In this document: positions 2,970-36,470 of the stretch, piece after piece
Layout: each line of letters starts with the position of its first letter
Position numbering within the stretch: the first letter of the stretch is position 1
Virus record (IMG/VR): IMGVR_UViG_3300011989_000005
Coordinates: 1-64,000 of that record
Origin: a virus
Taxonomy: Duplodnaviria; Caudoviricetes
Length of the DNA stretch: 64,000 nucleotides
Strand: one strand, 5' to 3'
The notes under the pieces: generated by a model
Database searches by the model: none
The model's input: the letters and a program-made list of their open reading frames with translations, nothing else
What the model was told of the DNA's origin: nothing
Translations under genes and position numbers: made by a program

Positions 2970-3494
2970 ATGAACACCAATTTCAAAGTCATCGTCGAGA
3001 CTGGGCAGGGTAGGGAGGTACACCCTGCCGCCTCGCTCGCTGAAGCCATCACCATCTACCGCGAGCAGATGGAGCAGTACCCACAACAGCAAATCCACCT
3101 CCTGCGCGACATGCCTATGCAGACCACCAGTTCCGCTTCGCAGCCGTCGCAACCGAAGGTGGTGCGCCACGGCCAGATAGACCGCCAGTACAATTCACAA
3201 CTCGACGGTGTGGGCAATCCCGACTGTCCGCTCTATGAAAAAGATGTCCGCATCACTGGCACCTTTGAGCAGATAGGCATGAGTCGCGACGACGTGGCCG
3301 CCGCCTGTCAGCGCCTCGGTGCCAAGTCGGCACGCGAGGGTATCTGCAAGAGCATGGATGTCGTCATCATCGGTAACAACCCCGGTCCCACTAAGCAGCA
3401 GAAGATAGAGGCATTGCGCAAGGAAGGTTACGACATCACCACAATTTCGCAGTTTGACTTCAAGGAAATTCTAAACAAGTACGGCAACCCGTGA
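2970..3494 (+). CDS. BRCT-domain protein
   Basis: VRITGTF..SRDD..LGAK..VVIIGNNPGPTK, ligase-type BRCT. Confidence 0.8.
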   Translation: MNTNFKVIVETGQGREVHPAASLAEAITIYREQMEQYPQQQIHLLRDMPMQTTSSASQPSQPKVVRHGQIDRQYNSQLDGVGNPDCPLYEKDVRITGTFEQIGMSRDDVAAACQRLGAKSAREGICKSMDVVIIGNNPGPTKQQKIEALRKEGYDITTISQFDFKEILNKYGNP

Positions 3495-3514
3495 CAATTC
3501 GTCACGCTTTCATC

Positions 3515-3555
3515 ACCGCCAGACGATCCACCATGACCGCCTGGCGGTTTTCTTT
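3515..3555 (+). terminator. intrinsic terminator
   Basis: ACCGCCAG...CTGGCGGT followed by T-run. Confidence 0.6.
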
Positions 3556-3576
3556 GTGATAGAATAGGGTAGGGTA

Positions 3577-4498
3577 GCTCCCAATAGGACAAACCTCCCG
3601 CCTATAATTCAATCTTCGGGCACGCACGTTGAGACAGCAGCACACTACACGTACTTTCCGGACATCGCCCCAGCGTCGGGCGCCTGTCCTTCACCGTCAG
3701 TGTGTTGAATGTCGTGACGGGTGTGCAGCAGTCAGATAGATGCAAGGCGCAGATCGGAGTGTGGTAGGGCAGTTCCCGACAGGACAAACCATGACATGAA
3801 GCCCGTTCTTTAAACCTCCCATCAGGACAAACCTTGCCTATCAGTCTGAAAACCTCCCGACAGGACAAACCGCCGAAAACACTCGAATAAAGTTCCCGTT
3901 AGGACAAACTCTTAACGGAATTTTATTTGCACAGGAAATCCATATTATACGCAAGTACATGATAATCAGCGGCTTTTTATTTGCTTGTAACTTGCCAACA
4001 ATAAAAAAGTACCCCTAATAGACTTGATCACAAGGGACCGCTTCAAGTTAAAAACTCATCTTTCATAATATAGAAGAAAGAAAAAAACTCTCGTTCGTCG
4101 TTTTTGGGATATCATTAAGTATATATAGAATAACGTATATAGAATACAGGTGGCAGACAGTGATTGATTATCAGCGACTTACAAAACAAAGTTTGTCCTA
4201 TTGGGAACTATATCGGCACGGATGTTTGTCCTTTCAGGAACTGCAGTTTGTTCCATCGGGAGGATTTGGTTTATCCTATTGGGAACCGTTTTCCCATCGA
4301 GGTTTGTCCTAATGGGAGGCAATAACGGCATAGTTTGTCCTATCGGGAGCCTTATCTAAGGCGGAGGTTTGTCCTAATGGGAGCCATATTGCAACTATTT
4401 TGTTTTCACGGGAGCGTTATACGCACGCACACGGTTTGTCTTATTCGGAACCGCGTTGTTTGTCCTATTAGGAAACGCAACTTTATCTTTTTAGGAAC
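3577..4498. repeat. iteron-type replication origin
   Basis: 5 copies TCCCnnnAGGACAAAC (+), then ~11 inverted copies (some degenerate), flanking an AT-rich core with an IHF-like site, directly upstream of rep. Confidence 0.85.
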
Positions 4499-4569
4499 TA
4501 TAAAAACATAACTGATTGATAGTCAAAACAAATAAATTTCGCTATCTGAACAAAATATTTCCGAAAAAA

Positions 4570-4601
4570 TTTGGAAATAAGAAAATAAAAATCTATCTTT
4601 G
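4570..4601 (+). promoter_or_regulatory. rep promoter
   Basis: TTTG (4570) and TATCTTTG (4594). Confidence 0.75.
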
Positions 4602-4668
4602 CAGCAGATTTCTTGGGAGGCAACGCTACAACTGCCGAACAGATACCGAGACATAAAGCTACACGAAT

Positions 4669-5925
4669 ATGCCGAGAAAGAAGAAGAAAGGTGTTACCGT
4701 TCAGGTGAACGAACTCATTACCCAGCCACGCAAGATGGCAAGCCTTCCTGCGCTCAACAGCCGTATCGGGCAGCGCACGATGCTGGCTGTGCTCCAGCGT
4801 CTGCAGGGATTGTTTAATCTGGCCAAGGAGAAAGAGAACATGCGGGTGAAGGACCGCCAGTTGTATTTCAACTTTGAGTCTGAGGACTTCGAGGTGAAAC
4901 GCAAATCGACCGCCGGCTACAACGAGGGCGACGTGCTTTTTAACCTGTCGCTCTCCGATATCGCCGAGCCCAACCACTATCCGGAGGTGCGCGAGGCGTT
5001 GGGGTCGTTGCTCAATATCCACGTGCTGGTTCCTATTCCCGAGGAACCTGGCCACTTCCGCACTGAGTCGCTTATGCAGATCAAGGGAGAGTTCGATAAG
5101 GACGGCAAGTTTGTCGGTACCGACTTCGGTGTCATCGTTCCGCGCCTGGCTGCTGAAAGCATTCTCGACATCAACCTCTTGGGCGGCTACTCCCGCTTCC
5201 TGCTCTTCACCGCCTCACAGTTTCGCAGCGAGTATGCCTATTCGCTTTACATCCGTCTGTCGGAGGAGTGGCGTCGTCGTCGAACGAACGTCTTTGACAT
5301 CGACTACGAGGATCTTCGCCAGAATATGGGCTTTGTCGTTGAGCAACAGACGGTGAAGGACAAGAATGGCAAGGAAAGAGTTGTCACCGTTGACCACACC
5401 AAGAAGCACAGTTCATGGTCTCTCTTCTGCCGCTATATCCTCGACCAGACTCAACAAGAACTTTTGGCCATGTCGCAGCGCACACCGCCTGTCACCGACT
5501 TTACCTTCGAGTATGAGGGGCGGCTGGGCAGTGGCACTCTTCCGAAGTACAAGCGTCCCGATGTCGTGCGCTTTACTATTATCCCCACCAGCGTCGGAAA
5601 GCAGTTGTCGTCCGACAATGTATTTGCTTCGCAGAGCATCCAGGTCCGCCGTATGATGACTGATGTGTTCAAGCTCACAGAGGGACAGGCGCGTACTTTC
5701 ATGCGTCGCATAACCCCCGACAATGTGGATGGATTGCTGCAGCATATGGAGCAGTGGCAGGCTGACATAAAGAACGGTCGTCGTAAGACATCCAACCGTG
5801 CGGCATGGGTGTGGACCTGCATCGACAACTATCTGAGTCAGTCGGTGGTGTCAGTTCAGGCAGCGGTAGAAGTGAAAGAAGAATCCGGCGGTTCCAAGCC
5901 TGCTGAGATGGAAGAATGGAAGTGA
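4669..5925 (+). CDS. Rep_3/RepB-like replication initiator
   Basis: NELITQP, FRSEYAYSLY, YEDLRQ, RYILD winged-helix pattern; adjacent iterons. Confidence 0.8.
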   Translation: MPRKKKKGVTVQVNELITQPRKMASLPALNSRIGQRTMLAVLQRLQGLFNLAKEKENMRVKDRQLYFNFESEDFEVKRKSTAGYNEGDVLFNLSLSDIAEPNHYPEVREALGSLLNIHVLVPIPEEPGHFRTESLMQIKGEFDKDGKFVGTDFGVIVPRLAAESILDINLLGGYSRFLLFTASQFRSEYAYSLYIRLSEEWRRRRTNVFDIDYEDLRQNMGFVVEQQTVKDKNGKERVVTVDHTKKHSSWSLFCRYILDQTQQELLAMSQRTPPVTDFTFEYEGRLGSGTLPKYKRPDVVRFTIIPTSVGKQLSSDNVFASQSIQVRRMMTDVFKLTEGQARTFMRRITPDNVDGLLQHMEQWQADIKNGRRKTSNRAAWVWTCIDNYLSQSVVSVQAAVEVKEESGGSKPAEMEEWK

Positions 5926-7457: not shown

Positions 7458-7599
7458 TAGGTTCCTGTAGTGAAAATAATTTTTATCAGGCGCAAAGATA
7501 CAAAATAATTTCCAGACCTCCATCACATTCTTTGCTATTTATTCCTGCATATTTGTTCAGTTTGCCAGACCCATGTCCTTTACAGTTGCTTGCAAATTG

Positions 7600-8020
7600 T
7601 GCGGACAGTACTGATAATCAGATAGTTATAAGTTCTTTTTAGAGAAGTCAGTTAGAACGCTTACAGTTGTCTACAAACTAAGAATGAAAATTTAAAGCGT
7701 TGACTATCAATTATTTAAAATACCGCTTGCGCTCCAATTTCGCACAGTGGAATGAAAACACGCCAAACTTTTCTCTTTATAATTATTACATATTTCTAAT
7801 CACACACACACGATAAATTCCCCGCACCCCAAATTAAATTATAATTAGAGATATTTAAAGAAGAAAAGAGGTTGATTATCAATTAGTTATAATATTATAT
7901 ATATGTTATGTGACATTTTTTTAATTAAATTTTATTTGGAAATATAGTAATAATTCTACATTTACCGCATTTTTACCGCAAAAAATATTGTAACCAACTG
8001 ATATATAAATGTTTATAGAT
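7600..8020. promoter_or_regulatory. AT-rich region with IHF-like sites
   Basis: WATCARNNNNTTR matches at 7616, 7705, 7877. Confidence 0.4.
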
Positions 8021-8161
8021 GCGACAAAATCACATATTCAGTTTGTGCCGCCAAACCGTCAGAAAAACTTTATAGACACGGAATGCCCTGTGCATCGGCA
8101 TTTCAGACTGATTCATCGTCAGCAAACAAAAATTGCCCGTCAATTTAATGGGGCGCATTGA

Positions 8162-8190
8162 TTTGCTCTCACAGAAAATGAGTACCTTTG
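8162..8190 (+). promoter_or_regulatory. promoter for tRNA/sRNA transcript
   Basis: TTTG (8162) and TACCTTTG (8183). Confidence 0.7.
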
Positions 8191-8306: not shown

Positions 8307-8390
8307 GGGTAAGCGCCGAAGTTGGAGAGACGGGGCAGACTGTAAATCTGCTGGCTAACGCCTGAGTAGGTCCGAATCCTTCCTTACCCA
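8307..8390 (+). tRNA. tRNA-Tyr(GTA)
   Basis: GGGTAAG/CTTACCC acceptor, GCAGA-CTGTAAA-TCTGC anticodon arm, long variable arm; T-loop TCCGAAT; CCA not encoded. Confidence 0.9.
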
Positions 8391-8615
8391 CATAGGATGA
8401 ATTTCTTCATACACCGCCGCGAGGCGCCTCTTGTACAACAATTTCTTTGCCGCTGTGAAGCGGGTGACATAAGTTTTTTGATTTGTTTTAGTAGATTAGT
8501 TTTTAAGTAGTTTGTTTTTGCCGGTCACTCCGGCAAACCATCGGGAGGCTCGCGTGTAGCTCCTCTCGTTTCGGCAGCCGCCCCGTTGTAGCACTCTGGG
8601 CGGCTGCCCTTGTCT
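8391..8615 (+). ncRNA. putative antisense sRNA in tRNA 3' trailer
   Basis: non-coding, several hairpins; last two loops carry TGTAGC complementary to rep/parA leaders. Confidence 0.6.
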
Positions 8616-13389: not shown

Positions 13390-14130
13390 GCCACCCATAT
13401 ACGTGGGCCCATATCGCGGGCGCAAATTGCGCGTCCATCAGGGCGCATAATGCACGCCCATTTCGCCCAGCCAACGTGGGCGGGCGCACGCGGGGGACTC
13501 CCCCGATACATTCTGTTTTTGTGCCCGCCTGCGTCACGATGGATGGTAATCAAGACTTTGCGCTGCGCATCGTGGCATCACGTGGACGCCCAATGGGGGT
13601 CGGGGTTGTGGGCTGGTGTGGTCGCCCAATGGGGAGCCGTTTCGTGGGCTGATGTGGTCGCCCAATAGGGGTCGCTGTGGTCGGCTGATTTTGGACGCCC
13701 ATATCGCGTGAGGGGTGGGCGGTCAGAGCCTTTTGTGGTCGCCCAATGAGGTGCCGAATTTTGGACGTCCACCTAAACGCGAAGGGTGGGGGACCAGGCG
13801 AGGCGCGTGGAAGCCCATGACCCGCCGTGATGTGGACGACCAGCCCCCTAACGAGACCGACCATGTGGACGGATGATGGGCGACCAAGTGGGCCTGGGTG
13901 GTCGCCTGATGTGGGCGGAAGTGGTCAGCCACCTAACTGCGAGTGGCAGCCCACGCGAAGCCCGACATGGGTGCCCATCCGAGGCTCATCGTGGGCGACC
14001 ACGCGAGGGGTTAATGGGCGTCCCTAAACGCGAAATTGGGCGGCCACGTGGGCTGGTGTGGTCGCGCTGTGGGCCCACGTAAATTGGGCGCCCACGTCAC
14101 GATAAATAATACCCCACGTCCACGCGCCTG
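13390..14130. repeat. GC-rich TGG(T/A)CGCCCA repeat tract
   Basis: copies at 13583, 13619, 13655, 13692, 13736 plus inverted copies downstream. Confidence 0.65.
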
Positions 14131-14265
14131 CGGCGTTTTTTTAAGTCTAAATAACCGTGTTATTTAGACTAAAAAAACGAGGTCTTGACAACCGCTCAAA
14201 AAATCATTTTCTTTGGGGTAGCCTTTCGATGGTCGATTGGCGCAACTTCAAAATCAATTTGCATT

Positions 14266-15267
14266 ATGGCAACACGTAACAACAAGCGCAACGACGCAAC
14301 ACGTAACGAGAACACGAACGCTGCAAGCAAGCAGCAAGTTGAGAACCGCAAGAACGGCAAGCAGACCCCTGCCCCCGCTCCCACGAACGATGCCCCCGTA
14401 CCCGCCAGTGTCGAGGACGTTCAGCACCGCTACGACGAGGTGAAGTCGCTTCTTAGCAAAGCTAAGAAAGACAAGCAGAAGCATAGCGACAAAGTCGCTA
14501 CCCTCAAGGAGCGTTTCGACAACGAGAGCTATGCTCTCGCCACACTCCGCTGCTCACTGGGCACAGGTGATGAGCAGGACGCTGCTATCGTCGCCAACCG
14601 TAAGGTTGAACTCGGCTTGTCCGACCTGCTCGGCAAGGCTATGGGCACACTTCCGCAGGACAGCGACGAAGTCGCCAAGGCTCGTGAGTCGGCTAAAGCC
14701 GAAGAGCGCAGTCTGACCTCGGCTATAGCCGAGACCAAGCGTCAGTGGAACTCCGTCTATCGTACTCTGTACGATACCATCGGGCTGACCAAGGTGTCTC
14801 TGCTGACCCCCGACATGCTAAAGGACTTGTGTCCTTTCCTCCTCGTCGGCACCGCTGACGGCCTAAAGGCCGGTGTCATCAGCCGCTCAGCCGTCCGCAA
14901 GAACGGCAAAGCCGTGAAGAAAGACGGCAAGAGGGTGTATAAATACACCCTGAGAGAGCGCAAAGGTTGGTCGGCTTACGGGCTCTTTGAGCTCTTAGAG
15001 CTCAACTTCCGTTGGACTAACGGCGAGGTATTCACCGAGGACGAACTGAAAGTTCGTAACGACCTGCTGACCGCTCAGGTCAATGCCTTAAAGGCATTGA
15101 AAGCAGCCAAGGCTGCCAAGCAGTCGGACGTCCCCGAGCAGGCTGCTGAAGCAGCCACCGCTGAGGGTCAGTTGGCAGCTGCTGCTAAGGCAGCAGGCAA
15201 GGCTGTCAAGGAGAGCACTGCTACCACAGGTAGCAAGACCGCTAACCGCAAGACCAAGGTTGCATAA
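14266..15267 (+). CDS. basic coiled-coil protein with Ala/Lys-rich tail
   Basis: 333 aa from MATRNN; N-term resembles 12283 ORF. Confidence 0.75.
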   Translation: MATRNNKRNDATRNENTNAASKQQVENRKNGKQTPAPAPTNDAPVPASVEDVQHRYDEVKSLLSKAKKDKQKHSDKVATLKERFDNESYALATLRCSLGTGDEQDAAIVANRKVELGLSDLLGKAMGTLPQDSDEVAKARESAKAEERSLTSAIAETKRQWNSVYRTLYDTIGLTKVSLLTPDMLKDLCPFLLVGTADGLKAGVISRSAVRKNGKAVKKDGKRVYKYTLRERKGWSAYGLFELLELNFRWTNGEVFTEDELKVRNDLLTAQVNALKALKAAKAAKQSDVPEQAAEAATAEGQLAAAAKAAGKAVKESTATTGSKTANRKTKVA

Positions 15268-15284
15268 GCAACCTACCTACGGTA

Positions 15285-15850
15285 GGGCGTCCGCTGTCGG
15301 AGCGGCTTAACCCCATAGGGGTTACGGAGGGTCCGACTCCCTCGCTGCCCACACTATCCTGCACCCATATCGGAGCGTTCGTTTCGATTGCAGGCCGTCG
15401 GGGTTCCCTACGGGAAAGAGGAACCAAGCCACTCGCCACCTATCGGTGGAACCGCAAAGCGGTTGAGCTAAGTGCCCGAGCTGCTCCGACCTAAAGGTCG
15501 GGTGGTGGACGACAATGGTCGTTGGTCTTACAGACCACAGTCGCTTATCAAGCGGTTGCCTGCTCTTTGACATGATGTGAAGCACGACTGAGCGAGGAAG
15601 AAACTCGCAACACGTTGGAGTGACGGCAATGGAAGTAGGGGTATGACCCCCATGAGGATTTTGACTACGCAAAAACGCTTCTATGGAGATATAGTGCGTG
15701 GGCGTCAAGGTGGCAAAACAGTTAAGACGGCTTGCTCTGGGCAAGAATGGGCGTGCTATGCGCTCTGCGTTCCAGCGCGAGAGAAAGGGATGTTACCATG
15801 ACCGAAAGCAGGGCGGCCTGGCCCACGTACCCAAACAAACTAAATGCGAG
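15285..15850 (+). ncRNA. long structured leader RNA with tRNA-like cloverleaf and boxA
   Basis: many hairpins; TGCTCTTTGACA at 15561-15572. Confidence 0.55.
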
Positions 15851-15854
15851 AATT

Positions 15855-16139
15855 ATGGCAACACTGAAAGATTTATGCAGCACTATCCCTGTAAGCATGA
15901 TGCGCGACCAAGCTATCCGAGAACTGAACCGACGCAAGGCGATGTCCTATGTCCGGCGTATGGACGCACTGCGCCAGGAGGAGCGCGTTTTTGACAAGTG
16001 CCAGACGCGCCGCCCCGAAAAGGGAAAGAGCAAAAACAGCTATTCGCGGGAGGAAGCGGGCACGATTGGCAACATGGTTGTAGGTGTGCGTACCAGTTGG
16101 AACAGCGTGGTGGTATGTAAGTGCCGCAAAACGAACTGA
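15855..16139 (+). CDS. hypothetical basic protein
   Basis: ORF from MATLKD. Confidence 0.5.
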   Translation: MATLKDLCSTIPVSMMRDQAIRELNRRKAMSYVRRMDALRQEERVFDKCQTRRPEKGKSKNSYSREEAGTIGNMVVGVRTSWNSVVVCKCRKTN

Positions 16140-16251
16140 GAAATATTGCGTAAGTTTATCAACTATGGGCGGTCGTCGTGACGACGTTTGACTATCTGTA
16201 CGCCCATATTGTTCGGACTAATAATAACACATATATAATAAGGCGTAAACT

Positions 16252-16416
16252 ATGGCAGCAATGGTACTTGAACTTCGCCCGAAGTTCCAGGAGCTTCGGG
16301 CGAAGGCGACGTACTCGCACGAGGAGGTCATCGACATCCTATGCGAGTTCGCCAAAACTCTCTATCCCGACATGGCGCCGGAGCGTATTCGGGAAATCAT
16401 CGTAAATAATTTCTAA
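16252..16416 (+). CDS. small hypothetical protein (54 aa, not in ORF track)
   Basis: AAACTATG start, MAAMVLELRP...IVNNF. Confidence 0.6.
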   Translation: MAAMVLELRPKFQELRAKATYSHEEVIDILCEFAKTLYPDMAPERIREIIVNNF

Positions 16417-18388: not shown

Positions 18389-18658
18389 ATGGCAATAATG
18401 AGCGACGCGCAGATTGCTGCGCAGTATTCGGACTTCAAGATTCTGGCACTATCGGTGGAGGAGAAGGACGATTATTTCACGGGGTGCATAGAGATAGAGT
18501 TTCCTAATGCCGACAACATCACGTTCGACGGCTATAAGTGTGACAACTTTATCGGCTATGGCAAGACGGGCAACCGTATTGCCTTCGACAACTGGTACCC
18601 TGACGAGGTGTACTACAATCTGTGTTATCAAATCAATAAACAACGTAAAGCAGCGTGA
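18389..18658 (+). CDS. hypothetical protein, ends RKAA
   Basis: ORF in packed array. Confidence 0.7.
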   Translation: MAIMSDAQIAAQYSDFKILALSVEEKDDYFTGCIEIEFPNADNITFDGYKCDNFIGYGKTGNRIAFDNWYPDEVYYNLCYQINKQRKAA

Positions 18659-18662
18659 GACT

Positions 18663-19772
18663 ATGGCAAACGAGATTAAGACGGCCAACGGAGTGGAGTA
18701 CCGCTTCGTGGGCGAGTATGGCAGCATCCGCATGGAGAACGCCAAGACCATCAACCGCTATCTGGAACTGAAGAGCGGCGAACCTGACACGGAGAAGTAT
18801 GGCGTGTTCTTCGCCTTCGGCAACGACCAGTTTGAGGAGGGGCGCAAACGCCTTATCGCCAAGGGCTACCTGAAGGAGGGCGAGAAGGTGTGCTCGGCTG
18901 GCATGGGGCTGTATGGCACCAGCGAGGAGATAGACCGCTATCTGGACTTCTATAAGCAGCTTGTGACGCTGCAGGGGCAGGAGTGCAACCCGCAGGAGGT
19001 GTACTTCTACGAGTGGAACAACCACGAGTGCATGGTGTCTATGGACGACGATCCTGCGCTGAAACTGATTATCGACATCTTCGGCAAGGAGGCGGCGCAC
19101 AAGATTAAGCGCATCTATCCCGGCACTCCTACCAACATACTGGCACCGCTGACGGAGCGCGACAAGCATCTGGGAGAGTATGACCACACGCTGAGAATGC
19201 TGGGGCGCATGGAGTTCGACTTGCACGGGTTCTTCAGCGAGGGCGACTGTCGCTATCAGCGGCCCGAAGACCTGTGGGCGGGCTGCGTGAAGGGCGAGAT
19301 ACAGAAGACAAGGGAACTATACAACGCCCTGCCCGACGACATCAAGGACGCTTCGCCTATGACGAAGCAGGAGATAGACGACTATGCCCGACGGCTGGAG
19401 CAGTGGGCTGACGCGGAGTTCTCGAAGGCGGAGTACGACCCCGTGCCCACGACCCGGCGCGAGGACTTGCCGCAGGAGATTGAACTGCAGGACAAGCTCT
19501 ACTATCGTGACGACGACGGCAAATATCAGACACCGACGCACGTATGGTTCTCGTGCGACTCGCGCCGCTCGCATCAGGACGAGCGCATGACGCACGGAAG
19601 GGCTATGACGAGCTATCTGGGCAAGAAGGGCACGACGCTGACGCCGGTGCTCATCAGCGACCCGACCGCACTGGGCATGAAGCCCTATCGGAGGGACGAC
19701 CTGTGCAACGTGTCGGCCAAGTATGAGTATAAGCCGCTGCACGGCAGACTGTATGAATTTTATTACGAGTAA
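18663..19772 (+). CDS. multidomain protein containing LPD11-like domain
   Basis: FFAFGNDQF/NHEC N-domain; LGRM..D..LWAG....EI...RELYNALP...MT...ID. Confidence 0.65.
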   Translation: MANEIKTANGVEYRFVGEYGSIRMENAKTINRYLELKSGEPDTEKYGVFFAFGNDQFEEGRKRLIAKGYLKEGEKVCSAGMGLYGTSEEIDRYLDFYKQLVTLQGQECNPQEVYFYEWNNHECMVSMDDDPALKLIIDIFGKEAAHKIKRIYPGTPTNILAPLTERDKHLGEYDHTLRMLGRMEFDLHGFFSEGDCRYQRPEDLWAGCVKGEIQKTRELYNALPDDIKDASPMTKQEIDDYARRLEQWADAEFSKAEYDPVPTTRREDLPQEIELQDKLYYRDDDGKYQTPTHVWFSCDSRRSHQDERMTHGRAMTSYLGKKGTTLTPVLISDPTALGMKPYRRDDLCNVSAKYEYKPLHGRLYEFYYE

Positions 19773-19784
19773 CAATTAAAAACT

Positions 19785-20984
19785 ATGGCAAAGAAACAAG
19801 TGGACGAAAGTCCGATGATGAAGCAATACCGCGACCTGAAGGCGAAGCATCCGGAGGCTATGCTGCTGTTCCGCTGCGGCGACTTCTATGAGACGTATGA
19901 GGACGACGCTAAGGAGTGTGCCAAGGTGCTGGGTATCACGCTCACCTTCCGTAACGGCGACAAGATGCCTATGGCGGGGTTCCCCTACCATGCACTCGAC
20001 ACCTATCTGCCCAAACTGACAAGGGCTGCCAATTCGGGGCAGATGAAGTTTAAGCGTATCGCTATCTGCGACCAACTGGACCCGCCGCCAGGACCGAGAC
20101 CCAAGCGCGGGACTACAACTGAGGACAACAATCAAAACAATTCGGAGGACGAAGTTATGAATAACGAGACAATGAAGGTGACCGACCTTATCGGCAAGAG
20201 TATCAGCAACGGCGGTAACGCCAAGTACACAATCAACAGCATCGAGGGCGACAAGGTGAGCGTGACGTTCCAGATGGGCGACAGCGAGGGCAAGCCTATG
20301 ACTATGGGCGTGGCTCAGGTGGAGAAGCTGCTGCAGGGCGGCTGGACTGTTGGCGCGGGCACGGCGCAGGAGCCTACCAAGCAGGAGGCACCCAAGACGG
20401 AGGAGTCTGCCGCCAAGACGGTGACTATGGGCGAGACGAAGAAGCCGCATGGCATTATGCCGAAGTCGAAGGTGACGCTGCGCAAGAAGCAGCCGCAGAC
20501 GGAGGAGCCTGAAACCAGCAACGTGAAACCTGAAACCAAGGCGGGCAAACTGGTGTATAGCGCCTATACGAACAAGAAGGGCAAGACGTGCGCCAAGGTG
20601 AGCGGATTCGCCGAGACGGACGCAGCCTATCAGCAAGCAATCAGTCTGCACGGATTGGCTTCCTACGAGACGGTGAAAGGTGAGCGCGTGAACTTCCTGA
20701 CGTTCGGTCCCCGCTATGCGGAGGTGGCAAAGACCGTATGCCAGATGCTGAACGAGGGCAAGAGCCTGGATGACTGCCAGGCTATCGTGGACAAGGCTAC
20801 CGAGGAGCGTATGGCAAAGCGAGAGGAGCGCAAGCAGAAACGCGAGACCTATCGTGAGCAGCACACTCCCAACCCATCCCCGAAGGGCAAGACCTATACC
20901 GAGCAGGAGGTGGCTGACCTGATGCGCCGAGTCATCGCCGGCGACAAGGAGGCTATGGCTATTGTCAATGCTATGGCGGCGTAA
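19785..20984 (+). CDS. MutS domain I fused to unknown domains, ends MAA
   Basis: SPMMKQY..K...[18 protein letters not shown]. Confidence 0.85.
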
Positions 20985-21029
20985 AGGAAGTGAAAAGTGA
21001 AGAGTGAAGAATAAAGAATTAAAGTAGTT

Positions 21030-22100
21030 ATGGCAACGAAAAGAGACAACGGAGGCCAGCAGAAGAAGCGTGGCTTCCAGATGAACGACAAGCAGAAGGC
21101 GAAGTATGCCGAGTTATTTACCAGCGCCCTCGACCAGATGGAGGATGCGGAGTGGACGAAGCCGTGGGTCAGTCCCCGACACGGGTCGCCGATGAACTAT
21201 AAGTGGCGCAAGCCGTACAGAGGAATCAACAACTTCATCTTGACCCTGCTATGCGCTATCAAGGGGTGGGAAGCACCTCTGTTCCTGACGTTCGAGCAAC
21301 TTACCGACATGGGGCTATCGCTCAATATGATGGAGGACGAAGAGGGCAACGTGGTGCTGAAGGACAACGGGATGCCGAAGTTTGAGAGCAGCTTCCCCGT
21401 AGTGAAAAAACTGCCCACCTACTATCTGGATCACAAGAAGCTGACGCAGAAGGAATATGACGAGCTGGACGACGAGGACAAGGAGCGTGTGAACACGCAC
21501 TTCCGACCTAAGACCTTTCCGGAGTTCAACCTATCGCAGACGGACTTCAAGGCGAAGTTCCCCGAGAAGTGGGAGGAGCTGACCCGTCTGCCTGAGCACG
21601 ACTATAAGAGCGGAACCAAGGACGAGGTGCTGGAGCGGATGATCATGCAGGGCGAGTGGCGCTGCGCTATCAAGTTCACGAGGCATGAGAGCTACTACTC
21701 GCCCACGAAGGACGTCATCTGCCTGCCGGAGCGCAGCCACTTCCTCGGCGACGAGCTGTTCTATTCGACGGCTATTCACGAGATGGCGCACTCTACGGCG
21801 GGCGAGCTGAAGCGCGACATGGGCGGCGAGGGATTCGGCTCTGAGGGCTATGCCCGTGAGGAGTTCGTGGCGGAGCTGACGTCGGCGTGCGTATGCTCAA
21901 TGCTGGGTATCGGCAGGTTGCTCGACCAGCAGCATATCGCCTATGTGCAGAACTGGCGTCAGGCTATCAGAGACGACAAGGACTTCATTCCTGCCGTGAT
22001 AGACCATGTGCAGCGGGCTACGAACTACTTCCTTCGCCGCTATGACGAGGTAAACAAGCAGATGCACCCGCTGATGCTGCCTATGCCGATGGCGGCGTGA
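21030..22100 (+). CDS. ardC: ArdC-like antirestriction protein (ssDNA-binding plus zincin)
   Basis: WTKPW, YRGIN, FLTFEQ, HEMAHST, YAREEFVAEL. Confidence 0.9.
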   Translation: MATKRDNGGQQKKRGFQMNDKQKAKYAELFTSALDQMEDAEWTKPWVSPRHGSPMNYKWRKPYRGINNFILTLLCAIKGWEAPLFLTFEQLTDMGLSLNMMEDEEGNVVLKDNGMPKFESSFPVVKKLPTYYLDHKKLTQKEYDELDDEDKERVNTHFRPKTFPEFNLSQTDFKAKFPEKWEELTRLPEHDYKSGTKDEVLERMIMQGEWRCAIKFTRHESYYSPTKDVICLPERSHFLGDELFYSTAIHEMAHSTAGELKRDMGGEGFGSEGYAREEFVAELTSACVCSMLGIGRLLDQQHIAYVQNWRQAIRDDKDFIPAVIDHVQRATNYFLRRYDEVNKQMHPLMLPMPMAA

Positions 22101-31129: not shown

Positions 31130-31439
31130 GCACTATGGCAGCAAGGCGGCGTGAGAAAAGCTGCTCACGAGCAATCTCCAGATTGGTTACAAGCAATCAG
31201 GAGGTTGTTCGTGAATGATTAGAAATTGACAACAGACAAAATCAAAACAAGCGAGATTATGGACAACGAAAAGAAAAGAGCAAAGGTTATCGAGATGACC
31301 TTTATGGTGACAGCGGAATGGCAGTGGTGAACCTTATGACCGACTATGTGTCGGAGAAGGATTGGGGACATCTCTATGACCGTCTGGATAGAGATGGTGC
31401 GTTCAGGAATGATAAGTGAAACTAAAACGACAACGAGAT

Positions 31440-34400
31440 ATGAGTAAATTACAAAGACTGCGTGATAATATCGCGGCTATTGATTATGCGCTGACCGGGA
31501 ACGGCGACGCATCGGTGATGGATAAATACACGGGCTTCGGGGGGATGACGTTCGTGCTGAACCCGCTGGAGCCGACGGCGTGGAGCAAGAGCGACATGAT
31601 GTATTACCAGGACACCGCGTGGCTGCATGATCTGCTGAGAGACGCAAGCCATAGCGGCAAGGAGTATCAGGCTTGGGTGGAGAGTCTGAAGGCAAGCACG
31701 CTGACGGCGTTCTATACGCCCGACGAGTTGGCTACGGCTATTAGTCAGACGCTGTGGGATGCCGTGCCGACGGCGCAGGTACTCGACCCTGCGGCTGGCA
31801 TGGGCGTGTTTATGAAGACCCCTGCCACCTGTGAGGGCTGCAAGCGAATCGTGGCATACGAGAAGGATTTGCTGACGGGCATGTTGCTCCGTAGCAAGTA
31901 TCACTATAAGTCTTGTGACATCCGCATTGACGGGTTTGAACATTTCCCCGATGATGAGTTAGGCAGTTTCGATCTGGTAGCGACCAATGTACCTTTTGGG
32001 GATATCCGCGTGTTTGATCCTGACTATACGAACTCTAAGAGCCAGTTGCGCAGGGAGGCGGCGAAGATGATACACAAGTATTATGTGCTGAAAGGACTGG
32101 ACTGTCTGCGAGAGGGTGGGGTGCTGGCGTATATCATCACGAGCAACTACCTGAACCGTGACAGCGAACAGTTGGGCGAGGCACTGAAGCAGGCGCGGCT
32201 CATCGGAGCGTATCGGTTGGCGAACAATCTCTTCAAGGAGAGCGGTACCGAAGTGGGCACTGACCTCTTAGTGATGCAGAAGGATAGCCAGCGCGGGGCA
32301 CTGACGGAGGAAGAGACGATGCTGCTGACGCAGTATGAGGACGAGGGATGCCCGACGAGTATGTACTTCACCTGCTATCCCGAGCACGTGATTGCGACGG
32401 CGTGGACGGTTGATACGGATGCCTATGGAAAGCGGGCGTTTGTGTATAAGCACCGCGACGGTGTGCAGGGGATTGCACAGCAGCTGGGCGAGGTGCTGAG
32501 CAAGGACCTCGGCGCGAACCTCAAGGCTGACCTCGGCGGAAATACCGCCGAGCACGGGACAAGCGGCAAGCAGGAGCGCAAGGAGGAGAGGATGACTATG
32601 AAGGAGAGCATTTTGCGAGAGCTTTGCTTCGACTATCAGATGTTGTACAAGAAGGAAGCGGAGGAGATGGCTGAGCAGCCGGAACTCCGAAAGGAGATAA
32701 ACCGCCTCTATGACGGCTTCGTTGAAAAATGGGGCTTGCTGAACAAGCCTGAGAACGTGAAGTTCATAAAGGCTATCAAAGGCTTTGACAATATCGCAGA
32801 GCTGCTGACGCTGGAAATACTGGAGGACGGCAAGTGGCGCAAGGCTGACATCTTCGACAGGCCGGTGGCGTTCTCGACGGACGAGATGCACAGCGTGACG
32901 GACGCTCACGAGGCACTGGCGCAGAGCCTGAATGACTACGGCAAGCCCGATGTGCGCTATATGGCTGCACTGACGGGGAAGAGCGAGGAAGAAATCTGCG
33001 ACGAGCTGGAGGGGGAGATTTACTATAACCCCCTGAGCGAGGAGTGGGAGATCAAGGCGCGGTTCGTCAGCGGGAATGTGATAGAGAAGATTGATGCTAT
33101 CCTGCAGAAATACGGTTTCACTGGACCGGACTTCGACATATCGAAATATCGGGATAACGATATAACGACCACCAATCCGACCGAGCGACAGGTGAGGAAG
33201 AGCCTCGCTGCCCTGCAGGCCGCCATCCCTGAGCCTATCTCCTTCGATGATCTGGACTTCAATCTCGGTGAGCGATGGGTGGACACGAAGATTTATGAGG
33301 ACTTCGCCTCGGAGTTCTTCTCGATGGAGGGCGACGGCTACGGATGCAAGGTGAGGGTGACGGTGAAATACGACCGCAACCTGGATCAGTACGTCTGCGA
33401 CAACGACCGTGGCAATGAGAAAATCTATACGCAGTATGCCGTGAGCAGCGAGGCGAGCAAGGCACTCGACGGTATGGGCTTGTTGCAGCATGCGCTGCAG
33501 GACGACTGCCCGAAGATGATGAAGTATCAACGCGACGAGCGGGGCCGCAAGATTCAGCAGGGCAAGAGCTATGCCAAGGAAGAGGACCCGGAGGCTACGC
33601 AGAAGGCTAACACGCTCATCGAGGAAATACGACAGGGCTATCAGGACTGGCTGCTCAGACAGCCGAAGGCACTGCGCGACGGACTGGCTGAGAAGTATAA
33701 CAGGCTTTTTAATTGCCACGTGAAGCCGCAGTTCGACGGCTCGCACCAGCGTTTCCCCGGCATTGACTGGCAGGGGCTGGAGACGAAGTACGGCATACCG
33801 CAGCCGGTGTACGACAAGCAGACGGGCAAGAAGGTGAAAGGCGGCCTTTATAAGAGTCAGGAGGACTGCATCTGGATGCTCGTGATGAACGGCGGCGGCA
33901 TCTGCGACCACGAGGTAGGCAGCGGCAAGACGCTTATCATGTGTCTCGCTGCCCACGAGATGAAGCGCCTGGGCTTCTGCCACAAGCCGATGATCATCGG
34001 ACTGAAGGCCAACGTGGCTGCCATTGCCGAGACCTACATGACGGCTTACCCCAAGGCCCGCGTGCTCTACGCCAAGCACGCCGACTACTCAGGCAAGGAG
34101 CGCGAGAACTTCTTCAACCGCATGAAGAACAACGACTGGGACGTGGTGATTATGTCGCACGATCAGTTCGGCTTCATCCCGCAGTCGGACGAGGTGCAGG
34201 CCGACGTTATCCGTGAGGAGCTGAACCACCTAAACGAGAGCCTGAGCGCACTCTATGGCTCGTATGACAGCGTATCGAGCCGACTGAAGCGCGGACTGGA
34301 GAAGAAGAAAGCCAACTTGGCAGCCAAGCTGCAGGGCCTGTTGTGCTCCATCGAGAAGCGTAAGTCCGACGTGGTGGACTTCCGCATGATGGGCATCGAC

Positions 34401-36470
34401 CACATCTTCATCGACGAGAGCCACCAGTTCAAGAACCTCGGCTTTACCACCCGTCACGACCGTGTGGCAGGCTTGGGCAACTCGGAGGGCTCGAAGCGGG
34501 CATACAATCTGCTGATGGCTATCCGCACCATTCAGCAGCGCACGGGGCGTGACCTCGGTGCGACGTTCCTCAGTGGCACGACGATTACGAATAGCCTGAC
34601 GGAGCTGTACAGCCTGTTCCGCTATCTGCGACCGAAGGCTATGGCCAAGCAGGGAATCACCTGCTTCGATGCCTGGGCGGCTATCTTCACCCGGAAGACT
34701 CAGGAGTATGAGTTTGGGCTGACAAACCAGATTGTTCTGAAGGAGCGGTTCAGATACTTTATCAAGGTGCCGGAGCTGGCGCAGTTCTACAACGAGATAA
34801 CCGACTACCGCACGGCGAAGGACGTAGGCATCGAGCGGCCTGAGAAGTATGCCCGACTGATGCACATCGAGCCGACCCCCGACCAGGAGGAGTTTATCCA
34901 CACGCTGATGAAGTTTGCTGAGACGGGCGACTTCTCGCTGATAGGCATCGACAGTCCCACCAAGCAGCAGCAGATGGCGAAGATGCTGTATGCCACCGAC
35001 CTTGCACGCAAGATGTCGCTCGACATGCGGCTGATTGACCCCTCGTATGGCGACCACCCGCGGAGTAAGGCGAGCATGTGCGCCAAGATGGTAGCGAAAT
35101 ACTACCACGAGTTCGACAGCGTGAAGGGTACGCAGATGATCTTCAGCGACCTCTCGACGTGGCAGAACGACGGGAAATTCAACATCTATGAGGAGATCAA
35201 GCGCAAGCTGGTGGAGGACTACGGCATACCCGCCTCGGAGATACGCTTCATACAGGAAGCACGGTGCGACACGAAGAAGAAGAAGCTTATCGGCGAGGTG
35301 AACGACGGCGACGTGCGCATCCTCTTCGGCAGCACCTCTATGCTCGGCACGGGAGTGAACGCCCAGCAGCGAGTGGTGGCGGTGCATCACCTTGACACAC
35401 CCTGGCGCCCCAGCGACCTGGAGCAGCGCGACGGCAGGGCAGTGCGTAAGGGCAACGTGATAGCCCGCGACTATGGCGACAACAAGGTGGACGTGATTAT
35501 CTACGCCGTGAAGCGCAGTCTGGATGCCTACAAGTTCAATCTGCTGCACAGCAAGCAGACCTTCATCCAGCAGCTGAAGCAGGGACAGTTAGGCAAGCGC
35601 ACCCTCGACGAGGGCTCGATGGACGAGAAGGGCAACATGAACTTCGCTGAGTATATGGCTATCCTCTCCGGCAACACCGACCTGCTGGAGCGTGCGAAGC
35701 TCGACAAGAAGATTGCCGCCCTGGAGGTGGAGAAGAAGAACTTCCACCGCGACCAGCGTCAGGCAGAGGAGCGCCGCGACCGGCTGCAGAAGGACGTGGA
35801 GCGGCTGACGAAGGACGTCAGCGACGCACAGGCTGACCAGCAGCAGTTCGACGCACGGAAGCAGCTGGGCGAGCAGGGCGAGGTGCTGAACGCCCTGGTG
35901 CTCGACGGGTTCACCATGCCGGAGACCGATGCCGACGGCAATCCACTCGACTATGCCGGACAGCAGAAGGCCCTCGGCGAACGGCTGTGGCGCATCGAGC
36001 AGACAGCCCGCACGCAAGGCATTCCAATGAAAATAGGCTCGCTTTACGGCTTCGACCTGATGGTGAAGACCAATGAGCAGATTATCCACGATGCTGACGG
36101 CAACGAGGATGTGCTATACACCAACTACTTCACTGTGCAAGGCTGCCGCATCCTGCATAAGGTGGACGACGGTTTACTCTCGCATCGGTCGCCCCGACTG
36201 GCAGCGGAGTACGCCCTGCGCTGTCTGCAGAAACTGCCCCGACGCATCGCCGACTGGCAGCAGTGGATAGCGGACAACAACGTGACTATCCGTCAGCTCA
36301 ACGAACTGCTGCGCCAGACGTGGTCCAAGGAGGACGAGCTGCGCCGCGCCAAGGCCGACCTCGCAAAACTCGACCGCAAGATCAACGCCGAGATGAACGG
36401 CAAGAAGTCTAACGACGGTTCCGAGAGCAGCGCCTCCGAGACCGACGGCGGGCTGAAGCAGGCGGCATAA
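31440..36470 (+). CDS. DarB-like N6-adenine MTase / SNF2 helicase fusion, ends KQAA
   Basis: VLDPAAGMG, NVPF, HEVGSGKT, DESH, SGT, QRDGRAVR. Confidence 0.9.
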   Translation: MSKLQRLRDNIAAIDYALTGNGDASVMDKYTGFGGMTFVLNPLEPTAWSKSDMMYYQDTAWLHDLLRDASHSGKEYQAWVESLKASTLTAFYTPDELATAISQTLWDAVPTAQVLDPAAGMGVFMKTPATCEGCKRIVAYEKDLLTGMLLRSKYHYKSCDIRIDGFEHFPDDELGSFDLVATNVPFGDIRVFDPDYTNSKSQLRREAAKMIHKYYVLKGLDCLREGGVLAYIITSNYLNRDSEQLGEALKQARLIGAYRLANNLFKESGTEVGTDLLVMQKDSQRGALTEEETMLLTQYEDEGCPTSMYFTCYPEHVIATAWTVDTDAYGKRAFVYKHRDGVQGIAQQLGEVLSKDLGANLKADLGGNTAEHGTSGKQERKEERMTMKESILRELCFDYQMLYKKEAEEMAEQPELRKEINRLYDGFVEKWGLLNKPENVKFIKAIKGFDNIAELLTLEILEDGKWRKADIFDRPVAFSTDEMHSVTDAHEALAQSLNDYGKPDVRYMAALTGKSEEEICDELEGEIYYNPLSEEWEIKARFVSGNVIEKIDAILQKYGFTGPDFDISKYRDNDITTTNPTERQVRKSLAALQAAIPEPISFDDLDFNLGERWVDTKIYEDFASEFFSMEGDGYGCKVRVTVKYDRNLDQYVCDNDRGNEKIYTQYAVSSEASKALDGMGLLQHALQDDCPKMMKYQRDERGRKIQQGKSYAKEEDPEATQKANTLIEEIRQGYQDWLLRQPKALRDGLAEKYNRLFNCHVKPQFDGSHQRFPGIDWQGLETKYGIPQPVYDKQTGKKVKGGLYKSQEDCIWMLVMNGGGICDHEVGSGKTLIMCLAAHEMKRLGFCHKPMIIGLKANVAAIAETYMTAYPKARVLYAKHADYSGKERENFFNRMKNNDWDVVIMSHDQFGFIPQSDEVQADVIREELNHLNESLSALYGSYDSVSSRLKRGLEKKKANLAAKLQGLLCSIEKRKSDVVDFRMMGIDHIFIDESHQFKNLGFTTRHDRVAGLGNSEGSKRAYNLLMAIRTIQQRTGRDLGATFLSGTTITNSLTELYSLFRYLRPKAMAKQGITCFDAWAAIFTRKTQEYEFGLTNQIVLKERFRYFIKVPELAQFYNEITDYRTAKDVGIERPEKYARLMHIEPTPDQEEFIHTLMKFAETGDFSLIGIDSPTKQQQMAKMLYATDLARKMSLDMRLIDPSYGDHPRSKASMCAKMVAKYYHEFDSVKGTQMIFSDLSTWQNDGKFNIYEEIKRKLVEDYGIPASEIRFIQEARCDTKKKKLIGEVNDGDVRILFGSTSMLGTGVNAQQRVVAVHHLDTPWRPSDLEQRDGRAVRKGNVIARDYGDNKVDVIIYAVKRSLDAYKFNLLHSKQTFIQQLKQGQLGKRTLDEGSMDEKGNMNFAEYMAILSGNTDLLERAKLDKKIAALEVEKKNFHRDQRQAEERRDRLQKDVERLTKDVSDAQADQQQFDARKQLGEQGEVLNALVLDGFTMPETDADGNPLDYAGQQKALGERLWRIEQTARTQGIPMKIGSLYGFDLMVKTNEQIIHDADGNEDVLYTNYFTVQGCRILHKVDDGLLSHRSPRLAAEYALRCLQKLPRRIADWQQWIADNNVTIRQLNELLRQTWSKEDELRRAKADLAKLDRKINAEMNGKKSNDGSESSASETDGGLKQAA

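Follow-up and report, generated by a model that had tools for sequence, protein, structure and literature searches.

A conserved phage RNA joins a tRNA-like module to an rrn-type boxA and may recruit host antitermination factors

How might a phage keep the RNA polymerase of its host moving over RNA that is not translated? We analysed a window of 64,000 nucleotides (nt), the first 64 kb of the single-contig virus record IMGVR_UViG_3300011989_000005 (134,182 base pairs (bp), G+C 54.7%, complete according to CheckV), and describe in it a conserved structured RNA of about 305 nt that lies directly behind a protein-coding gene, here called gene U, and ends in a motif of the boxA type known from ribosomal RNA (rrn) operons. 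The motif is well supported as an rrn-type boxA by its sequence, orientation and context, and we propose, at a probability of roughly 0.55, that through this boxA at the 3' end of the RNA the phage borrows the antitermination machinery that serves the rRNA operons of its host. Antitermination by Nus factors at boxA is textbook knowledge for the rRNA operons of E. coli and for lambdoid phages. To our knowledge it has hardly been studied in Bacteroidota, the probable host group, and a full-text literature search did not find it described in Bacteroidota phages.

Results

Extent and conservation of the RNA

Both the unusual folding and the conservation are confined to positions 15268-15572, and we therefore take this interval as the structured unit. 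It folds with z = -4.03, none of 100 shuffles folding as well, and the untranslated spacer behind it (15573-15854) gives z = -0.86 when folded alone. An earlier note on this DNA had placed a structured span of about 500 nt at 15352-15850; with its flank (15262-15860) that span gives z = -2.2 on either strand. The structure is real, but the RNA begins 84 nt ahead of 15352, and the part from 15573 to 15850 is unconserved spacer. The further suggestion that the transcript might be an RNA in its own right agrees with what we find, a conserved RNA with covarying structure.

Relatives were collected by scanning an alignment of 20 gene U proteins against IMG/VR and the JGI metagenomes, which yielded 21 loci; an earlier scan with a single protein had given one of the same contigs, L005. 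By blastn, 22 of the 24 loci L005-L028 have the RNA right behind their gene U homologue; it is missing from L006, which was fetched through its downstream protein, and from L014, whose contig stops 51 nt past the gene. Scanning for the pattern in a single genome of each prokaryote species added two copies, L031 and L032, on contigs of 121,895 and 109,831 bp in metagenome-assembled genomes (MAGs) labelled Bacteroidales and Bacteroidaceae. Two other matches of that scan, L029 (inside a coding region of an Oscillospiraceae MAG) and L030, have no profile match and were set aside as chance. Wherever a contig extends far enough, which is the case for 18 distinct relatives, the RNA follows gene U and ends in the motif, so that the conservation called for by the earlier note is found throughout.

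In the phage genome nhmmer finds a single copy of the RNA (15271-15583). Its DNA identity to the relatives is 62-80%, equal to that of the adjoining upstream coding DNA, and drops to 40-51% over the 280 nt past the motif, which cannot be aligned except in the near-identical strain L012; conservation thus ends at boxA. The RNA varies in length from 292 to 319 nt among relatives by differences that are not multiples of three, and it contains no conserved reading frame. A minus-strand open reading frame (ORF) at 15322-15744 was rejected as a gene because of these non-triplet length changes and a longest frame that ranges from 46 to 102 amino acids (aa) across relatives. Comparison with Rfam 15, which the earlier note had recommended, gave no match at gathering thresholds anywhere in the window, and at E values up to 10 only weak, chance-level matches of at most 22 bits (window 15000-16400; L005 4900-6300). 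A 184-nt contig from an RNA library covers 15559-15726 and is evidence neither way.

The motif and the rrn operons of the probable host family

As the earlier note had seen, TGCTCTTTGACA lies at 15561-15572 just behind a boxB-like hairpin, which we find to have 9 bp; its 8-nt core (15561-15568) is an exact match to E. coli UGCUCUUU. The pattern GYTCTTTGAMA occurs once in the 134,182-bp genome, counting both strands, at an expectation of about 0.1 per strand. Likewise, [CT]G[CT]TC[TA]TTGA[ACT]A is present in 16 of the 16 deduplicated loci that reach it, 321-341 nt past the reference point; L017 is cut short and stands outside this count, and L031 and L032 also carry the motif. The cores of the 18 sequences are TGCTCTTT (14), CGTTCTTT (2), CGCTCTTT (1) and TGCTCATT (1), and the consensus of the phage family, YGYTCTTTGAMA, thus holds the E. 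coli core in 14 of 18, with a second half of the B. subtilis type. A reading of TTGACA as a sigma-70 -35 box was rejected, there being no -10 box after it in the window or in relatives.

What is demanded of such a sequence? Excerpts of one study give the NusB-NusE recognition core as 8 nt, with a purine tolerated at position 9, and describe transversions at core positions 2, 5 and 6 as harmful, U6G abolishing the function of lambda boxA (PMC3177189). Excerpts of two others give a gammaproteobacterial consensus, GYTCTTTAANA (PMC5725501), and a boxA-like consensus of B. subtilis rrn operons, AUGAUCUUUGAAA, that is bound by B. subtilis NusB (PMC13753749).

The closest comparison is with the probable host family, for which we sampled 16 genomes of the family around the Bacteroidaceae MAG, seven of them with 16S hits; the two MAGs that contain the phage contigs carry no 16S. 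The sequence G[A/T]TCTTTGA[A/C/T]A is found ahead of 16S in the rrn leaders, at a distance of 120-217 nt, and again in the spacers, behind the spacer tRNAs and at about 370-400 nt from the end of 16S. It is present in five of the six genomes of this inferred host family that have whole 16S loci (G004, G006, G009, G010 and G016), G007 having a variant; in G004 each of the five operons has it at both positions, in G009 four of six spacers have it, and in G016 three of four leaders. A hairpin of variable sequence stands 4-10 nt ahead of each of these sites. The spacer site of L056, GATCTTTGACATGATGTACA, has 15 consecutive bases, TCTTTGACATGATGT, in common with the window, GCTCTTTGACATGATGTGA, and the shared run extends past the motif. 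Because host-family leaders and spacers carry a motif of this kind behind a hairpin, and one spacer has these 15 bases in common with the window, the identification of the phage motif as an rrn-type boxA, made in the earlier note by comparison with E. coli, is well supported, and by sequence the motif is closer to the rrn boxA of the probable host family than to that of E. coli.

Secondary structure and strand

RNAalifold, given 16 sequences, predicts 61 pairs, of which 23 show compensatory changes. At paired positions G-U outnumbers A-C by 44 to 13, mostly in the 3' domain, and the fold therefore belongs to the RNA of the + strand and not to the DNA or the opposite strand. The 3' domain, consisting of an invariant GAGC, four hairpins and the motif, was tested with hand-defined helices on the MAFFT alignment A9, which is not fitted to structure, and is 95.5% paired by cells, against 85.9% in shuffles and 24-51% with slid partners; 12 of its 29 pairs show compensatory changes. 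Its last helix, the boxB-like hairpin, varies in sequence and length among relatives and is 95% paired, with two of five counted pairs compensatory.

Support for the middle hairpins is less clean (85.6% paired, 8 of 27 pairs compensatory), MAFFT misaligning their length variants. The helices of the three hairpins at 15402-15464 are 74-93% paired in the unfitted alignment, with other complementary sequences in the relatives, and the inner helix of the extended hairpin before them is 93% paired, two of its eight pairs being compensatory. In place of the first hairpin (15272-15286) the relatives have hairpins of the type GGCC-loop-GGCC. All six hairpins listed in the earlier note lie where it had put them (Table 1), one of them in the spacer; it had missed ACGAC-AATG-GTCGT and five hairpins farther upstream (15272-15343), as well as the tRNA-like cloverleaf.

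A terminator scan also flagged the boxB-like hairpin, together with the CTCTTT behind it. We rejected this reading, the T tract being poor and spaced off the stem and the same layout occurring in host rrn leaders. Finally, we note that most relatives contain two similar boxes inside the RNA, CCGAGCC[AT]C..GCCCC and [TC]CGAGCCAAG[TC]GCCC (15426-15440 and 15462-15477 in the window); they may have arisen by duplication within the RNA or be a pair of sites for a single partner.

Table 1. Features in and around the structured RNA of the window.
Feature	Position	Strand	Description
Promoter-like site, Bacteroidota type	14184..14215	+	CTTG, 20 nt, TTTCTTTG; degenerate at position 2 of the -7 box
Gene U	14266..15267	+	333-aa helical, basic protein; always directly upstream of the RNA
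Conserved structured RNA, whole element	15268..15572	+	About 305 nt; fold, conservation, covariation
First hairpin	15272..15286	+	CCTACC-TAC-GGTAGG; begins 4 nt past the gene U stop codon
tRNA-like cloverleaf	15282..15354	+	Short closing stem GGGC/GCCC; D-like arm, short hairpin and T arm; then CCCAC
Extended hairpin	15358..15394	+	Outer stem CCTGC/GCAGG, inner stem ATCGGAGCG..TTTCGAT
Three hairpins	15402..15464	+	GGTTCC..GGAACC around TTCCC-TAC-GGGAA (15404-15416); CCACC-TATC-GGTGG (15436-15449); AACCGC-AAA-GCGGTT (15450-15464)
First part of 3' domain	15465..15537	+	Invariant GAGC..GCCC; hairpins CCGACC-TAAA-GGTCGG (15486-15501), ACGAC-AATG-GTCGT (15509-15522), TGGTC-TTACA-GACCA (15523-15537)
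boxB-like hairpin	15538..15558	+	9 bp; directly before boxA; also flagged by terminator scan
boxA-type motif	15561..15572	+	TGCTCTTTGACA; 8-nt core 15561-15568
Spacer, untranslated	15573..15854	+	282 nt; neither conserved nor unusually folded; contains GCGAG..CTCGC (15592-15608)
Next gene	15855..16139	+	94 aa; start taken from the L006 homologue

A tRNA-like module at the 5' end

The 5' module of the RNA is tRNA-like but is not a tRNA. Its arms are a D-like CCGCT-GTCGG-AGCGG, a hairpin AACCCC-ATA-GGGGTT in the place of the anticodon arm, and a T arm GAGGG-TCCGACT-CCCTC. The fitted model R1 scores 76.9 bits in the window and 59.8-93.3 bits in 17 relatives, and it also weakly matches the real tRNA-Tyr of the phage (20.5 bits). 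On an alignment that was fitted by the model and so leans towards structure, pairing in the cloverleaf reaches 91.1% of cells, against 30-58% in slid controls, and compensatory changes are seen in 8 of 19 pairs. The stem of the canonical T arm is built from at least six different complementary sequences among the relatives, and the features of a tRNA elbow are conserved, namely a T loop TTCGAnT and a GG-containing D-like loop that is complementary to it. The closing stem has 4-6 bp and the hairpin in the anticodon-arm place a loop of 3-4 nt. A tRNA gene or transfer-messenger RNA (tmRNA) gene was rejected, since stem and loop fall short of the 7-bp acceptor stem and 7-nt anticodon loop of a full cloverleaf and ARAGORN calls neither at this site in the window or in the 17 relatives; the Rfam tRNA-Sec family scores 17.1 bits at the cloverleaf against a gathering score of 47. 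The cloverleaf and roughly eight hairpins make up the upstream two-thirds of the RNA, and their likeliest role would be that of a processing or insulating module after the gene U stop, or of a platform for further factors.

Two tRNA-shaped sites were seen farther downstream in relatives. In L022, about 150 nt past boxA (3457-3549), ARAGORN reports a "tRNA-???" with a 4-base anticodon, and in L023, about 400 nt past boxA (4741-4817), R1 has a weak match of 22 bits. Some relatives may thus carry additional tRNA-shaped elements behind boxA.

Transcription unit and host

The promoter consensus of Bacteroidota is TTTG, 17-23 nt, TAnnTTTG. The window holds three such promoters, all on the + strand, where 0.56 are expected, and between 12219 and 20000 there is no promoter of this type besides those noted here. 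In 11 of 13 loci examined, the gene U start is preceded at about 55 nt by (c)TTGACA or TTTGGA, about 19 nt, and TAnnTTTG; the window and L012 have the degenerate TTTCTTTG (14208 in the window) at this place. Host-family genomes have the same -7 box ahead of their rrn leaders. Most simply, the RNA would be part of a transcript that runs from about 14220 through gene U, the RNA, the 282-nt spacer and the gene at 15855. The earlier note had called the RNA a leader; with the putative promoter ahead of gene U, some 1.05 kb of transcript would precede the RNA, which lies between genes and is not a 5' leader. Before this promoter, at 14124-14169, lie two back-to-back terminator-like hairpins, GCGCC..GGCGT followed by T7 and then an 11-bp AT-rich hairpin between a T run and an A run; the pair looks like a bidirectional stop insulating the unit.

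The labels of the two MAGs that contain RNA-bearing contigs, together with the promoter type, point to a host in Bacteroidales. NusB and Rho are encoded in all five candidate-host genomes. Among the phage proteins there is no match to the NusB or NusG families, and no N-like protein was identified, although no search was aimed at the N family and many proteins encoded near the RNA belong to no family at all; the view of the earlier note that there is no obvious N protein is therefore tentative.

Discussion

Proposed mechanism and the points that weigh against it

The sequence of the RNA, its conservation, covariation, strand and single occurrence, its likeness to host-family rrn boxA sites and the presence of NusB and Rho in such hosts are observed; Nus binding, antitermination, the host and the promoter we infer, and we propose the following course of events. 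Host RNA polymerase would make the RNA within a transcript from the Bacteroidota-type promoter before gene U. The 3' end of the RNA would form an rrn-type antitermination signal, composed of the boxB-like hairpin (15538-15558), a short gap and boxA (15561-15572), and host NusB-S10 (NusE) would bind boxA as it emerges from the polymerase. NusG and NusA, possibly joined by SuhB and S4, would convert the elongation complex into a Rho-resistant and pause-resistant form, as they do on rRNA operons, and the modified polymerase would then cross the untranslated stretch into the downstream early genes, anti-restriction genes among them.

A number of observations weigh against this proposal. Terminator-like sites at 15.5-35 kb are not in excess (17, against 12.9 +/- 3.2 in shuffles), so that the purpose suggested in the earlier note, read-through of internal terminators across a 27-kb array, is speculative. 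Most phage copies of the motif have C at position 3, where the rrn sites of the host family have A or T, and L028 carries TGCTCATT, with a transversion at core position 6. The likeness to rrn covers a short sequence, and when a profile of the phage RNA was searched blind against rrn loci, the top hits were the L056 spacer boxA and the 3' part of a spacer tRNA, at non-significant E values of 1.5-3.7. RNAalifold also predicts a four-pair helix between the GCUC of the motif and an invariant GAGC that lies 95 nt ahead of it. The helix is retained by all 17 distinct sequences but shows no compensatory change; since boxA binds its factors as a single strand, such a helix, if real, would leave it partly hidden. 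No RNA-sequencing run is listed as containing the stretch, and MAG binning can misplace phage contigs. Last, excerpts of PMC12360218 state that boxA can promote Rho termination in some contexts.

What, then, would the modified polymerase have to cross? Untranslated RNA is the natural substrate of Rho. From it an rrn-type boxA is a known shield, as described in excerpts of PMC12360218. Because the phage boxA precedes untranslated RNA and boxA shields such RNA, we prefer Rho-proofing of the RNA and genes that follow, and protection from Rho across the following untranslated stretch would be a more economical account than the reading through of internal terminators.

The stretch after boxA is longer in some relatives. 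Eight of them, from two clades, have a further conserved and apparently non-coding stretch of at least 460 nt past boxA, purine-rich and with invariant blocks (L005:5366-5845, L010:3836-4312, L019:4328-4805, L015:2419-2895, L009:4330-4806, L018:4333-4800, L031:5503-5978 and L032:6361-6828). It reaches about 750 nt in L005 and has no counterpart in the window phage. RNAalifold finds compensatory changes in 33 of its 92 pairs, which with two clades amounts to few independent events; inspection of the eight relatives shows no evident conserved reading frame, and in L005 there is no Rfam match. We therefore also raise, as a speculation that we hold doubtful, that the locus follows, in a phage, the plan of a host rRNA-operon spacer, in which a tRNA-shaped processing module, a structured spacer and boxB/boxA would recruit the rRNA antitermination complex to Rho-proof and chaperone a large phage noncoding RNA, namely this covariation-supported stretch, which would have been lost or replaced in the window phage. 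The RNA of about 305 nt would then represent a new class of RNA in Bacteroidota phages, one in which a tRNA mimic is tied to the recruitment of Nus factors.

Other explanations

The alternative that we take most seriously, while considering it unlikely, is a stable noncoding RNA that stands alone, has a tRNA-like domain, is perhaps cut by RNase P or another RNase, and acts in trans as a decoy or scaffold; the bases resembling boxA would then merely be the 3' strand that closes the 3' domain through GCUC:GAGC. Such an RNA would account for conservation and covariation that cover all 305 nt, beyond the motif, and stop exactly at it, for the constant GAGC:GCUC pairing, for the conserved tRNA-like elbow and for the lack of any matching Rfam family. 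Yet the four-pair helix on which it depends is the one without compensatory change, and no terminator or promoter delimits the RNA. The motif also resembles the rrn sites of the host family together with its preceding hairpin and the bases that follow, a likeness for which a purely structural strand would have no need. A stand-alone RNA is, moreover, compatible with a role of boxA in cis. A host-type boxA that ends a compact and probably stable RNA is the only point in favour of a sponge, by which abundant phage boxA RNA would titrate host NusB-S10 in trans and depress host rRNA synthesis. With one boxA per RNA, one copy per genome and a known mode of boxA action that is in cis, we consider a sponge very improbable.

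boxA might also act negatively, as it does at E. coli suhB: Nus factors would promote Rho termination, or keep the next gene from being translated, in a timed or autoregulated shut-down of the downstream genes. Enhancement of Rho termination that depends on boxA is documented at suhB and hisG (PMC5725501; PMC12360218, both in excerpts), but the known cases lie close to a start codon, the published search having a limit of 50 bp (PMC5725501, in excerpts), and the phage boxA is separated from the next start by 282 nt, and by more in relatives. The rrn-like context, with a hairpin before boxA and long untranslated RNA after it, fits the layout of antitermination, and a negative boxA is to us improbable. 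Least probable of all is an element that works as DNA, be it a replication origin, a packaging site, a set of protein-binding palindromes or an attP derived from the 3' half of a tRNA. There are many short inverted repeats within 300 bp, the T arm and acceptor-like strand resemble the 3' part of a spacer tRNA, and the distant relative L006 has iteron-like AAGGGCG repeats before its homologue of the downstream gene. Every hairpin, however, differs in sequence, leaving no repeated binding site; stems covary while their sequences drift, and the asymmetry of G-U over A-C points to RNA. As for an attP, no second copy or long identical stretch exists elsewhere in five genomes (the two MAGs and three related genomes), and there is no integrase among the scanned proteins, which represent part of the genome.

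Comparison with known systems

In rrn antitermination, a boxB hairpin, boxA and boxC in the leader and in the 16S-23S spacer nucleate a complex of NusB, NusE, NusG, NusA, SuhB and S4. The phage signal has the same order of hairpin and then boxA, with untranslated RNA after it; its core is identical to that of E. coli in 14 of 18 sequences, and its UUUGAMA half agrees with the B. subtilis consensus and, together with the next bases, with the sites of the Bacteroidaceae family. Similarly, the phage boxA lies downstream of a tRNA-shaped element, as spacer boxA lies behind spacer tRNAs, although the distance from the tRNA-like part to boxA is about 210 nt in the phage against 30-60 nt in host-family spacers. 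In contrast to rrn signals, the phage boxA stands between protein-coding genes and forms the 3' end of its own conserved structure of 305 nt, and no rRNA follows.

At the nut sites of lambda, which lie after the first gene of the early operon, boxA precedes boxB, and boxB is the hairpin bound by N. The phage likewise places a host-type boxA on nascent RNA after a first gene, where we propose that it modifies host polymerase. In the phage, however, the hairpin precedes boxA, neither its sequence nor the sequence after boxA is conserved, and the host is probably of the Bacteroidota and not of the Enterobacteria. Because the sequence of the hairpin is not conserved, a sequence-specific, N-like partner is argued against, and given the order of the elements we do not read the locus as a lambdoid nut site.

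tRNA-like modules are known from the tRNA-like domain of tmRNA, from the bacterial Y-RNA-like YrlA and from viral tRNA-like structures. The phage module shares with them a cloverleaf junction, a canonical T arm and a D-like loop able to pair with the T loop, and differs in having no anticodon loop or free CCA end and in its closing stem of 4-6 bp.

Finally, lone boxA elements outside rRNA operons act on Rho termination of poorly translated RNA according to excerpts of PMC5725501, and those at suhB and CRISPR operons are named in excerpts of PMC13753749. Like the boxA of the suhB leader and of gammaproteobacterial CRISPR arrays, the phage boxA is a lone one of the rrn type outside rRNA operons; unlike the phage element, these are chromosomal and short, have no large structured RNA attached and are in some cases negative.

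Our analysis derives a boxA consensus directly from the rrn operons of genomes of the Bacteroidaceae family. It also offers a family of large, uncultured rumen phages in which the same signal ends a conserved 305-nt RNA, and a tRNA-like module that lies outside the Rfam families. The RNA is a compact and testable element for asking how Bacteroidales phages of gut and rumen keep host polymerase moving over untranslated RNA. Should it prove functional, Bacteroides genetics could also gain from it a portable part for read-through.

The phage and the genes around the RNA

The phage encodes a tape-measure protein of 2,803 aa (PF10145) and a head maturation protease. DNA sequencing runs that contain the stretch are labelled mostly as bovine gut metagenome, and the source is likely a group of large uncultured rumen phages with Bacteroidales as the likely host. 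A blastn search with 15200-16200 found no match in phage or plasmid records, among which close neighbours of the window's own record may be lacking. Single-strand promoters are known from conjugative plasmids, and the presence of ArdC and DarB-like genes had suggested a plasmid leading region; this was dropped, the record being a virus with a tape-measure protein and the hairpins being short and local. Most of the phage proteins that were scanned, including many neighbours of the RNA, have no family match.

Gene U probably starts at ATG 14266, M28 being nearly invariant in the alignment of its homologues, of which there are 99 with identities of 43-92%. Its protein has no match in Pfam, PHROG, PDB sequences, Atlas or Foldseek, and its AlphaFold2 model has a mean pLDDT of 68.5. 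The 94-aa protein of the next gene is 44% identical to its homologue in L006, a low-GC viral contig that has no such RNA and in which the many iteron-like AAGGGCG repeats lie at 3440-3660, upstream of the homologue.

Farther downstream, the + strand carries a block of genes with anti-restriction-type domains: LPD11, MutS_I, the ArdC N-domain with a zincin, and a DarB-like methylase/helicase of 1684 aa. The polyvalent-protein and anti-restriction domains fall at 18507-22100 and 31416-36470 (LPD11 with DUF7659, MutS domain I, ArdC N-domain with zincin peptidase), which fits an early counter-defence block.

A 54-aa ORF (16252-16416 in the window) also occurs in L012, L026, L005, L010, L020 and L022; in these seven loci it lies, with the AT-rich TATATAATAAGGYGTAAACT that precedes it, 680-1430 nt after boxA, and this upstream string is near-identical and exceeds the sequence around it in conservation. 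The window has two other long gaps between ORFs, at 3869-4668 (800 nt) and 7527-8139 (613 nt), with 8307-8391 noted alongside them. The 800- and 613-nt gaps are each associated with a full match to a Bacteroidota-type promoter on the + strand, at 4570-4601 and 8162-8190, the latter just before the tRNA-Tyr gene.

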